From positions 1,922,001 to 1,986,000 of the forward strand of contig NC_090365.1 in NCBI RefSeq assembly GCF_035084215.1: 64,000 bases of DNA, in the 5' to 3' direction. This document shows positions 28,498-31,671 of this stretch, in pieces. This DNA comes from Heptranchias perlo (Eukaryota). Made by a program: the position numbers and the translations under genes. The notes beneath the pieces were generated by a model. It was not told the origin of the DNA, did no database searches, and saw nothing but the letters and a program-made list of their open reading frames with translations. Each line of letters begins with the position of its first letter. Positions within the stretch are counted from its first letter, which is position 1.

Positions 28498-29875
28498 CAT
28501 TGGTGCGTTGGGCTCCAAAACCCACTTCTTTTCTCCTGAAGGCGCCGACTCTCGCACCTGGGGTGCGGGTTCCACAGGCGCCTGTCGACCACCAATCGGA
28601 GTGCCCAGATTACATGCGCGAGCCCACTCGGTGAATGTCGGCAAACTATTCGACCATGGGGAGGCATCGCAGTCGGGAACTGCATACACACTGGGGCTGC
28701 TGCTTCGCGGCGAGGAGAGGGATCTCAGGCCGATTATTTTTTTTCTCTAGGATTTGCAGGTTTCTTTTGAGTGGAGGGAGGATCTTCCAGATTTGTTTCA
28801 TTGAAAAATGGAGTAGCCATTGCTTTAAGTGTCAGTGGGCAGCGCTCTCGCCTCTGAGTCAGAAGGTCGTGGCTTCAAGCCAGGGACTTGAGCACAAAAT
28901 CCAGGCAGGGGGGAGAGGGAGAACGGGGAGGGGGAGAAGGGGGAGGGGGAGGGGGAGAAGGGGGAGGGAGAGTCGAAGCTGGGAAGCTTCTGGTCTGTGT
29001 TACACATTGGATGAACACAATCTTCTATTGGGGGGGTGGTGTGTGGGGGGAGGCCAATGCACACTTTAAAGAATATCAGATACATGGTAGTGATACCAAG
29101 GTCAGCTCTGAATCACGTTTATTAATAGTTGGAGGATTGCAAGGGAACTGTCGTTCCACTGCTGATTCCAGTGTACATCAGGGCATGAACAGCCCGTTCA
29201 ACAGAAAGAGCAAGAACAAGCTTGCTTTTTTTATCCTTAATTGTATCTTTCTCTCCTATCCCTGGAGCTGGCCTCAAGCATCTCCACATTACCACTGGGC
29301 CTAGACAGTGTGTGTGTGTGTGTGTGTGTGTACTATTCCACCATGGGGGGCTTTGCAGTCCAGCCCAATACTGCTCTTACCGAACGTCCACGCACGTGCA
29401 CTTTCCAGCAAGGGTCGCAGGAGAGCACCAGGAACCCCTGCTGATTTCCCCCCATCCACTGGGTGAGGCTGCTACTTTTAGCACCTCTCCCACCACCCCA
29501 ACACCAAACAGGCATTGAGCTCAGAATCTTTCTCCTCTGTGTGACTTAGTTCCACTTTCAGTGCTCCTTTGGTATTGCCAATCTCCCCATCCTAATTAGA
29601 TCCAAGTCTGGGTATCCGCTATTCTCTATACAAACCCCTCGATCAGATTCCAGCCTGTAACTCACTCCTGGTTATTCTATACATGTTCCCATCACCTAAA
29701 ACGTTCATGTTTAAAATGGGCGATGATTTCTATCGGCTAAAAAGCGAAAACCATTAACCATTTGCATTTACATCAATTTCAAAGTTGCCGGTTATAGCGT
29801 CTTAGGTGCTCCATTTATTTCAAATGTAAGGAATCTTACAACACCAGGTTATAGTCCAACAATTTTATTTTAAAA

Positions 29876-29912
29876 TCACAAGCTTTCGGAGATTATCCCC
29901 TTCGTCAGGTGA
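29876..29912 (-). ncRNA. Minimal type I hammerhead ribozyme motif (left PLE arm)
   Basis: Minus strand reads UCAC-CUGACGA-A-GGGGA-UAA-UCUCC-GAAA-GCUU-GUGA: core boxes, stem II, palindromic AGCU stem III and stem I UCAC/GUGA. Confidence 0.75.
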
Positions 29913-30153
29913 GTGAGTGAATAAGAGGTTCTCAAATCGTATATCTTATATTAGGCTGGGACACCATCACACCAATCAAAAGGTGTCGTTGGTGTTCAGA
30001 CAGGTTAGCCACGGAAAACAGTAGGTCCCAGTATGCTGAATACACATTGTGTCAAATTACACAGACAGAGAGAAAGAGACCCAAAAGGCAGAGAGAGAGA
30101 GAGAGAGAGAATATTAAAAACAGATAACTTTTTCTTCTCCCTTGCTGGTGGGG

Positions 30154-30655
30154 TTACGTGTAGCGTGACATGAACCCAAGATCCCGGTTGAGGCCGTCCT
30201 CATGGGTGCGGAACTTGGCTATCAATTTCTGCTCGACGATTTTGCGTTGTTGTGTGTCTCGAAGGCCGCCTTGGAGAACGCTTACCCGAAGGTCGGTGGA
30301 TGAATGTCCATGACTGCTGAAGTGTTGCCCGACTGGGAGGGAACCCTCCTGTCTGGCGATTGTTGCGCGGTGTCCGTTCATCCGTTGTCGCAGTGTCTGC
30401 ATGGTCTCGCCAATGTACCATGCTTTGGGGCATCCTTTCCTGCAACGTATGAGGTAGACAACGTTGGCCGAGTCACAGGAGTATGAACCATGTACCTGGT
30501 GGGTGGTGTCCTCTCGTGTGATGGTGGTATCCGTGTCGATGATCTGGCATGTCTTGCAGAGGTTGCCGTGGCAGGGTTGTGTGGTGTCGTGGATGCTGTT
30601 CTCCTGAAAGCTGGGTAATTTGCTGCGAACGATGGTCTGTTTGAGGTTGGGTGGC
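30154..30655 (-). pseudogene. PLE GIY-YIG endonuclease domain fragment (left arm)
   Basis: CKTC...VVYLIRC...WYIGET...RQRMNGHR...HF...H...E..LI...GLN; no RT and no true start codon. Confidence 0.85.
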
Positions 30656-31190
30656 CATCCCCACGCCTCCACTACTCGCCTTTAAACAGCCACCCAACCT
30701 CAAACAGACCATCGTTCGCAGCAAATTACCCAGCTTTCAGGAGAACAGCGTCCACGACACCACGCAACCCTGCCACGGCAACCTCTGCAAGACATGCCAG
30801 ATCATCGACACGGATACCGCCATCACACGAGAGGACACCACCCACCAGGTACATGGTTCATACTCCTGTGACTCGGCCAACGTTGTCTACCTCATACATT
30901 GCAGGAAAGGATGCCCCGGAGCATGGTACATTGGCGAGACCATGCAGACACTGCGACAACGGATGAACGGACACCGCGCAACAATCGCCAGACAGGAGGG
31001 TTCCCTCCCAGTCGGGGAACACTTCAGCAGTCAAGGACATTCAGCCACCGATCTTCGGGTAAGCGTTCTCCAAGGCGGCCTTCGAGACACACGACAACGC
31101 AAAATCGTCGAGCAGAAATTGATAGCCAAGTTCCGCACTCATGAGGACAGCCTCAACCGGGATCTTGGGTTCATGTCACGCTACACGTAG
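30656..31190 (+). pseudogene. PLE GIY-YIG endonuclease domain fragment (right arm)
   Basis: Same domain with ~9 aa differences from the left arm; 5'-truncated at PTPPLLAFKQPPNL. Confidence 0.85.
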
Positions 31191-31422
31191 CCCCACCAGC
31201 AAGGGGGAAAAAAAGTTATCTGTTTTTAATATTCTCTCTCTCTCTGCCTTTTGGGTCTCTTCCTCTCTGTCTGTGTAATTTGACACAATGTGTATTCAGC
31301 ATACTGGGACCTACTGTTTTCCGTGGCTAGCCTGTCTGAACACCAACGACAACTTTTGATTGGTGTGATGGTGTCCCAGCCTAATATAAGATATGCGATT
31401 TGAGAACCTCTTATTCACTCAC

Positions 31423-31459
31423 TCACCTGACGAAGGGGATAATCTCCGAAAGCTTATGA
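31423..31459 (+). ncRNA. Minimal hammerhead ribozyme motif (right PLE arm; one stem I mismatch)
   Basis: TCAC-CTGACGA(31427)-AGGGGATAATCTCC-GAAA(31448)-GCTT-ATGA; G-to-A at 31456 breaks the first stem I pair. Confidence 0.65.
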
Positions 31460-31671
31460 TTTTAAAATAAAATTGTTGGACTATAACCTGGTGTTGTAAG
31501 ATTCCTTACATTTGTCCACCCCAGTCCATCACCGGCATCTCCACATCATGGCCATTTATTTCAGGCAGATACAGTTGTGTTTACTCACTAGTTTGCATCT
31601 CGTTAAAGTGCATGTATCTGAATGTAATAAAAGAGCCTCATTGAGGCAGTCTTAATTTTAATATTTTATAT

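Follow-up and report, generated by a model that had tools for sequence, protein, structure and literature searches.

A head-to-head palindrome of two 5′-truncated Penelope-like element copies in the shark Heptranchias perlo

Introduction

A stretch of 64 000 nucleotides from the shark Heptranchias perlo (NCBI RefSeq assembly GCF_035084215.1, contig NC_090365.1, positions 1,922,001 to 1,986,000; hereafter the window, in whose coordinates all positions are given) contains at 29811–31563 a palindrome of two inverted copies of a Penelope-like element (PLE) fragment. This palindrome is almost certainly one non-functional, 5′-truncated insertion of an endonuclease-bearing (EN+) shark PLE, apparently of Neptune type, in the head-to-head form known for these retrotransposons. 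Typical PLE insertions are described as including inverted 5′-truncated copies, duplicated target sites and, on one side only, a tail of 30–40 bp (PMC8557442, PMC3846280, PMC2377424). Head-to-head units with target-site duplications (TSDs) of 8–10 bp are reported (PMC3846280), large inverted terminal repeats are given as the commonest Penelope form (PMC2377424), and the inverted form is listed in a curation guide (PMC8969392). The structure is typical of PLEs, and the view of it as unusual, taken in an initial annotation of the window, is not sustained.

Overall structure of the insertion

The unit opens with the left copy of a 12-bp TSD (29811–29822, forward strand), the last 2 nt of which (CA) are also the element end and constitute a microhomology. 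The left arm (29823–30655, reverse strand) is an inverted, tail-less, 5′-truncated PLE copy comprising part of the endonuclease (EN) coding region and the 3′ untranslated region (UTR) or pseudo-long terminal repeat (pLTR). At the inversion junction (30653–30655) lie three nucleotides, GGC, that the left arm shares with the native sequence upstream, where they belong to Lys-Ala codons. A 33-nt spacer follows (30656–30688, forward strand); it is native element sequence in frame with the right-hand open reading frame (ORF; AIPTPPLLAFKQ) and forms the 5′ overhang of the longer copy. The right arm (30689–31514, forward strand) is a sense, 5′-truncated copy that leads into a one-sided, AC-rich tail of 37 nt (31515–31551, forward strand), whose last letters are CATCATGG, and into the right TSD copy (31552–31563, forward strand). 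The tail was initially annotated as 36 nt long; it measures 37 nt, or 39 nt if the 2-nt CA overlap is assigned to the target.

Arms of about 830 bp lying 33 bp apart had been proposed, and the coordinates bear this out: the inverted repeat extends over 29823–30655 (reverse) and 30689–31512 (forward), with lengths of 833 and 824 bp and a gap of 33 nt, and the match continues 2 nt into the target duplication (29821/31514). The 12-bp duplication said to surround the whole unit has no copies in the 64 kb besides those at 29811 and 31552; a duplication of this kind is expected by chance with a probability of about 7e-6 (over 11 × 11 end offsets). The single insertion event postulated from it stands, one TSD enclosing the unit and none lying at its centre. 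There are no N letters in the window. The predicted hairpin has 816 pairs, including perfectly paired stretches of 97, 78 and 67 bp, and a free energy of −1658 kcal/mol. Paralogues in the window do not reach the target of this insertion: the right flank has none, and left-flank matches stop at least 135 nt short of the TSD.

A miniature inverted-repeat transposable element (MITE) or terminal-inverted-repeat DNA transposon was rejected on the asymmetric ends (the tail) and the content of PLE EN and pLTR. Similarly, a microRNA (miRNA) precursor was rejected: the Rfam models MIR1144 and mir-326 score 62.4 versus 90 bits and 30 versus 66 bits, a generic hairpin effect. No match reaches the Rfam gathering level anywhere in the window, and the sub-threshold miRNA hairpin matches are confined to the palindrome centre.

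Coding content and classification

The left open frame (30154–30654, reverse strand) encodes the linker and the GIY-YIG EN, lacks the reverse transcriptase (RT) and an upstream ATG, and carries H114 and S118 as does the relative P0023. The right open frame (30654–31190, forward strand) contains a CX4CxxC linker, a VVY-CxxxC-YIG core and the conserved R, H, E and N residues. The initial annotation had reported two open frames of about 165 residues with about nine differences; both are indeed open over 165 shared codons and differ at exactly 9 amino acids. In neither arm does an ATG precede the core or an RT remain, and therefore no protein is expected from the unit.

A search with the right-arm frame gave 170 relatives, 57 longer and 113 of similar length, in which H. 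perlo protein clusters of 54 and 11 members are present through their representatives only. The closest are H. perlo-named proteins at 94–95% identity, followed by other sharks at about 70–86%; a region search with a left-arm segment returned 11 proteins, none of them new. Pfam detects GIY-YIG in 0/2 of the arms themselves, and PF01541 (GIY-YIG) is matched in 11 of 32 aligned members and in none of the window ORFs. The sole PDB match of the alignment profile at E ≤ 1 is phage Endonuclease II (2wsh, E = 0.0025), which we take to be a GIY-YIG nuclease. The identification as a Penelope-like EN fragment is upheld by the 94–95% identical PLE proteins together with these profile and PF01541 matches. 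Over the 32 rows of the alignment, Y78, C82, C86, Y91, G93, R102, H106, H122, H128, E152 and N167 are invariant or at least 90% conserved; these columns are the PLE set, a Tyr-Cys-Cys-Tyr-Gly core plus His, Arg, Glu and Asn. The domain has the two cysteines between GIY and YIG that mark the CCHH-type EN of EN+ PLEs. An RVT_1 domain precedes the EN in the relatives P0001 (94% identical in the EN) and P0007, and truncation has removed the RT from the window copies; the arrangement of RT followed by C-terminal EN in a single ORF is thus seen in these two relatives only. Among bacterial and archaeal genomes, 51 pattern matches to stray copies with flanks were obtained and none was confirmed.

Both arms contain the linker C-HGNL-C-KT-C (C-X4-C-X2-C). 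A CX2-5CxxC linker between RT and EN is described as marking Neptune and Nematis, with Penelope and Poseidon lacking it (PMC8557442), and its presence led us to reject the Penelope/Poseidon clade for this element. The element is probably Neptune-type, as assigned by the linker motif alone and not by an RT tree. It agrees with the Neptune clade in the position of this linker ahead of a C-terminal GIY-YIG EN, in the pair of Cys within the core, in its vertebrate host and, in P0001 and P0007, in an RT N-terminal to the EN. Neptune and Poseidon are present in the vertebrates sampled in one study, in the consulted part of which no shark is mentioned (10.64898/2026.07.22.740005). The element differs from the clade in its targets: a bias towards microsatellites is hypothesized for Neptune, as a tendency and not a defining trait, and neither palindrome in the window (the second is described below) has a microsatellite target. 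The 5′ truncation with an inverted pLTR and an optional tail of 30–40 bp is found here, with tails of 37 and 35 nt and inverted copies in 2/2 palindromes.

Pieces of this PLE endonuclease also occur in annotated shark gene isoforms (P0005, P0009, P0022, P0023, P0026 and P0144), which are CYP2C31-like, NOXP20-like, septin 5a, XRCC5, PPP1R12A-like and FAM174A-like. Several of these isoforms begin at one point before CxxxC, which is either recurrent exonization or an annotation artefact.

A minimal hammerhead with a palindromic stem III has been described for PLEs (PMC4209133; PMC6765202). By inspection and folding, a candidate minimal type-I motif of this kind is present in the pLTR. In the left arm (29876–29912, reverse strand; below Rfam thresholds) it has the CUGAnGA core, a stem II of 4–5 bp, GAAA, a palindromic AGCU stem III and an intact 4-bp stem I. 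In the right-arm motif (31423–31459, forward strand) a G>A change at 31456 breaks the stem I pair adjoining the cleavage site. Rfam gave no hammerhead match in the arms, and the folds are not more stable than those of shuffled sequences. The hammerhead was rejected as what fixes the element ends; its cleavage site (about 31455) coincides with neither of them.

A second palindrome and a solo 3′ end

A second, shorter head-to-head palindrome of the same PLE family, with the same ends, lies 5.4 kb from the first (36977–37299; 0.3 kb). It has an 11-bp TSD (36977–36987 and 37289–37299), a left arm extending to 37105, a 26-nt spacer (37106–37131), a right arm (37132–37253) and a 35-nt tail on the right side only (37254–37288). 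The arms are about 120 bp long and differ at two sites, and the 3′ UTR upstream of the hammerhead is unlike that of the main palindrome. The host sequence is a short interspersed element (SINE), of which 14 other copies are listed in the window. Seven of these (at 1712, 5879, 10564, 14384, 18752, 36396 and 40970) are collinear through the target and contain it once; the copy at 23829 is collinear through it with a short gap, and the remainder are truncated or rearranged at the site. Because the SINE paralogues hold the target once, they provide a paralogous empty-site proof that the head-to-head architecture arises in a single event.

In addition, a solo tail-less 3′ end of a related, more distant subfamily (55878–55950, forward strand) ends near the tail-start site. 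It is bordered by a tentative 8-bp duplication (55873-80 / 55951-58), and no inverted partner was found at 55873–55958. This copy tentatively suggests that priming can take place at the tail-start site.

Junctions and outer ends

The outer ends of both palindromes fall at the same two element positions within 1 nt. The tail starts after CATTTG in the main palindrome and after CATTGT in the second, and ends with CATCATGG and CATCATG, respectively. Microhomology with the target at the tail-less end amounts to 2 nt (main) and 4 nt (second).

At the inner end, the spacer reads A-I-P-T-P-P-L-L-A-F-K-Q in frame, and 11 of the 18 relatives with the motif show A-K-A-I there. Since P0005, P0074 and P0150 read the spacer stretch off-frame as R-P-S-P-H, the Lys codon is AAG; GGC (30653–30655) therefore belongs to the native sequence as well as to the left arm, giving the 3-nt microhomology. 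The inner ends are coupled: the spacers are 33 and 26 nt despite arms of about 830 and 120 bp, a coincidence with a joint probability of 0.001–0.004 under independent exponential truncation. For the inner ends to be coupled in this way, either a fold-back or an RNA 5′ end common to both copies is needed. The native spacer, the 3-nt microhomology and the repetition of the architecture at 36977–37299 agree with the earlier proposal that the junction was made by the element's own replication.

Sequence divergence of the arms

About 826 bases can be aligned between the arms, of which 20 are substituted (2.4%); there are also two indels, one of 1 nt and a (CT)n indel of 8 nt. Seven differences lie in a CpG context. 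The one at 30525 reflects gain and not decay, through an A>G change in the right arm, because 5/5 covering H. perlo-named relatives have Thr like the left arm; true CpG decay thus accounts for 6/20 substitutions and touches 5 of the 9 differing residues. The suggestion that methylation-driven CpG decay after insertion separates the arms holds for these six and not for the remainder, in which two left-arm transversion variants are common to another copy. As a side observation, transitions on the element-sense strand number 13 A/G versus 3 C/T (two-sided p = 0.02, post hoc), and all six CpG decays are G>A; the pattern is symmetric on the genome strands and not on the element strands.

Differences were polarized at the protein level with seven H. 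perlo-named relatives. The right arm is of the majority type with three private changes (A43, H69 and S153). The left arm departs from the majority at six residues: I20 is found in 2/5 relatives, K76 has a first base as in the R76 of 3/7, Q109 and Q134 are private, and H114 and S118 are matched only by P0023 (1/6 relatives). At the last two sites the right arm has Q and A, as in the other 5/6 covering relatives. I20 and R76 are CpG changes that may recur; H114 and S118 result from transversions (at 30310 and 30300). In a simulation, two or more non-CpG changes were common with any of the seven relatives in 58/40,000 trials. A stretch of only 28 nt contains three of the four transversions (permutation p = 0.011). 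The sharing of H114 and S118 with P0023 therefore points to a different lineage of the family as the origin of part of the left arm, acquired during insertion or through conversion afterwards.

Of the 13 coding substitutions, 10 are non-synonymous, and hence the open frames need no selection; the right arm has also lost a near-invariant Gly adjoining the conserved Asn. At the epaulette-shark rate of 7e-10 per generation (PMC10587355), all divergence taken as post-insertion would correspond to about 1.8e7 generations, an upper bound and not a date. We rejected arm divergence as an unreliable basis for dating; it is no clean clock, because post-insertion CpG decay explains only 6/20 substitutions and two left-arm transversions are shared with another copy.

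Genomic surroundings

Host sequences recognized in the window comprise an F-box ORF of 630 aa (16329–18275, reverse strand), a Nanos ORF (PF05741; 39736–40248, forward strand), an M28 peptidase exon (PF04389; 6910–7461, reverse strand) and, by eye, a BTB/zinc-finger-like ORF and a lysine-rich ORF (47734–49827 and 53911–54669). Among the host genes are presumably FBXO46 and QPCTL. In the interval that separates the F-box ORF from the Nanos ORF, a scan of 114 frames of at least 62 aa yielded three sub-cutoff matches (an RT remnant and two unconvincing ones) and no other host gene, although short exons would escape such a search.

There are two candidate promoters on the reverse strand. The cluster at 34580–34705 is CpG-poor and combines what we take to be a ZNF143-type motif (at 34688, the sole match in the window), a CCAAT box and a CRE-like palindrome with a G-run and a donor at 34586. 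The alternative at 28000–28800 is CpG-rich (observed/expected ratio 0.70–0.82), with CCAAT and donors at 28559 and 28119, and overlaps a SINE whose ratio is the highest of eight copies compared, slightly above the next. The palindrome lies inside the F-box gene pre-mRNA only if the candidate promoter at 34.6–34.7 kb is the one used; with the one at 28.0–28.8 kb, the palindrome would lie some 1.1 kb upstream and would not be transcribed by the F-box gene.

Other repeats in the region are a degenerate 177-bp self-inverted sequence of 71% identity, possibly an old MITE (38071–38247), a repeat of about 68 bp found once left of the palindrome (29610–29685), twice in tandem to its right (32729–32867) and once inverted (37466–37508), a minisatellite of about 21–24 copies of a 31-bp unit (33105–34024) and a second short-period array at about 25080–25810.

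Discussion

The architecture closely follows that of canonical EN+ PLEs (PMC8557442), including form C of Drosophila virilis Penelope (PMC2377424) and Pen2a/Pen2 of Adineta vaga (PMC3846280), as far as these are described in the parts consulted: an inverted copy head-to-head with a 5′-truncated copy, one TSD of 8–12 bp, a tail of 30–40 bp at one end, a pLTR hammerhead and a short overlap or microhomology at the junction. The window unit differs in having no full-length or tandem ORF. Because it consists of two EN+pLTR fragments only, almost the whole insertion is hairpin. A difference in haplotype between the arms was not found in those parts of the descriptions.

How such a unit is made can be considered in the light of an anole PLE protein, PAc, of the Poseidon clade, which is predicted to be a dimer and in vitro cuts and extends both target strands, starting reverse transcription at two sites that bound the tail (PMC11167929). 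The window insertion resembles this system in its tail bounded by two fixed positions, in the AC-rich composition of the tail and, for the main insertion, in its AT-rich target. It differs in clade, and in that PAc starts are not homologous to the cut DNA, whereas the tail-less ends in the window have 2–4 nt of microhomology (PMC11167929, in the part consulted, which does not deal with inverted copies).

We tentatively favour a mechanism in which reverse transcription was primed from each end of the target, one at either boundary of the tail, and the centre was closed by a fold-back, with neutral decay since then. The element's GIY-YIG EN would cut the target with a stagger of 12 nt, as the TSD shows. 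The bottom-strand 3′ end would prime at the far tail end, and the RT would copy about 900 nt and stop in the RT–EN linker; the start and stop points are visible in the sequence, and the priming is modelled on PAc biochemistry. The top-strand 3′ end (…CA) would prime at the near end of the tail, leaving the left copy tail-less, on an RNA that may be from a different source copy; here the end position and microhomology are observed, and the second template is suggested by the shared variants. The 3′ end of the long cDNA would then snap back on the 3-nt GGC/GCC match, leaving the 33-nt loop, and the sense DNA so made would anneal to the second cDNA and close the centre, an order of events proposed on the observed microhomology and short spacer. 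Neutral decay would follow, and a long hairpin would form only if some transcript reads through. One cDNA that folded back and then decayed fits poorly, because the left arm shares two rare transversion residues with P0023.

LINE-1 twin priming offers a parallel, in that both target ends prime reverse transcription, the cDNAs are joined at microhomology and a 5′ inversion lies within one TSD. In L1 twin priming the inverted 5′ segment is present only once; the window unit differs in holding the same 830 bp twice and in having priming points fixed at the tail boundaries. The two target ends of L1 can be primed on different mRNAs (10.1101/2024.12.14.628481). In the literature searched, which included few subscription papers, we found no link of the two PLE RT start sites to the ends of inverted copies and no shark PLE palindromes.

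Several observations weigh against dual priming. The in-vitro data come from a Poseidon-clade element and not a Neptune-type one. The shared variants are known from one relative, P0023, and at the protein level only, and the read-through of P0023 into the 3′ UTR (…PHQRTNVICF) is unlike both arms; the sharing therefore looks local, as a gene-conversion tract would. Dual priming predicts fewer non-CpG differences close to the loop, but the counts observed, 2 within the inner 325 nt and 12 within the outer 505 nt, show no significant shortage (p = 0.16 in a scan permutation test). Neither the substitutions as a whole (p = 0.48) nor the non-CpG subset (p = 0.16) are significantly clustered. Folding with DNA parameters gives no preference to the fold-back register observed, 139/777 ends being as good at a span of ≤46. 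Finally, the truncation model and the shared-variant simulation are rough and were set up after the data had been seen.

Pure self-priming is a close rival, which we consider possible. One first-strand cDNA (or antisense RNA) would fold back on GGC and be copied to the tail-start site, where EN-mediated resolution would join the other target end; the arms would be identical at birth and would diverge only afterwards, H114 and S118 being brought in by a short gene-conversion tract from another copy. An antisense RNA route and a self-priming reading of junction palindromes have been put forward (PMC3846280), and tails have been attributed to EN-mediated resolution (PMC8557442). The short native spacers in 2/2 palindromes, the 3-nt microhomology and the length of the transversion cluster, just 28 nt, all accord with it. 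The junction end of the antisense RNA also folds in exactly the observed register, with an 8-bp stem (four G–U pairs), and 18/777 ends are as good or better at a span of ≤46; at a span of ≤80, however, the rank is 207/777, and the span limit was picked after the answer had been seen. Self-priming further calls for either an additional conversion event or a coincidence of 0.15% probability, gives by itself no reason for the tail-less end to be an RT start site mapped in vitro, and, if the full 2.4% arose after insertion, implies about 1.8e7 generations, a long life for a tight palindrome.

It is improbable that the unit is a copy of a pre-existing palindrome, in which a hairpin transcript of an older head-to-head locus was retrotransposed whole and the differences and junction were inherited. 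Arm differences older than this insertion would be accounted for, and PLE proteins are reported to mobilize pLTR-flanked sequence in trans (PMC3846280). Nevertheless, seven peptides that cross or abut the junction have no match in any of the 170 relatives, although this test is weak; the junction of the second palindrome is not the same; and the RT would need to traverse an 816-bp stem.

Two independent adjacent insertions, or an assembly artefact, are very unlikely. Tandem and inverted PLEs trouble assemblies (PMC8557442), PLEs tend to insert beside each other (PMC6765202) and the arms may differ in ancestry; against this stand the single TSD with none at the centre, 22 arm differences that include a variant pair known from another copy, the same pattern in a second palindrome whose SINE paralogues have one target copy, and a window free of N. 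Equally unlikely is that selection keeps the unit as a host element, as an EN protein or a double-stranded RNA regulator of the F-box gene: the frames are open, the predicted hairpin is long and stable (816 pairs) and small interfering RNAs map to Penelope inverted regions in transgenic Drosophila (PMC3681739), but 10/13 coding substitutions are non-synonymous, the right arm has lost a near-invariant Gly, RT and an ATG before the core are lacking and the position of the candidate host promoter is ambiguous.

A more general version of the dual-priming reading, which we regard as doubtful, is that head-to-head PLE palindromes are two-template products, in which a dimeric PLE protein primes both staggered ends, one per tail boundary, on RNAs possibly from different loci, and fold-back of the longer cDNA fills the centre. 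If it were true, the tail-less arm would be a mosaic, its outer part from the second RNA and its inner part copied from the partner arm, and shark genomes, seemingly rich in such copies (two in 64 kb), would let PLE integration be read by phylogeny.

Conclusions

The palindrome is real, was identified correctly in the initial annotation and is of a known kind, and its residual interest is the hint of different arm ancestry. The locus itself, a dead transposon fragment with a familiar shape, shows no sign of serving the host. It also provides a caution, since arm divergence is unsafe for dating such insertions in the way that is done for long terminal repeats. The making of PLE inverted copies and tails has been called undefined (PMC8557442), and the steps after RT initiation are left open in the part consulted of the in-vitro study (PMC11167929). 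The junction detail in the window, with its fixed outer ends, short native spacers and microhomologies, is a test case for PLE integration and, together with the ancestry hint, makes fold-back versus dual priming a simple genome-wide computation.

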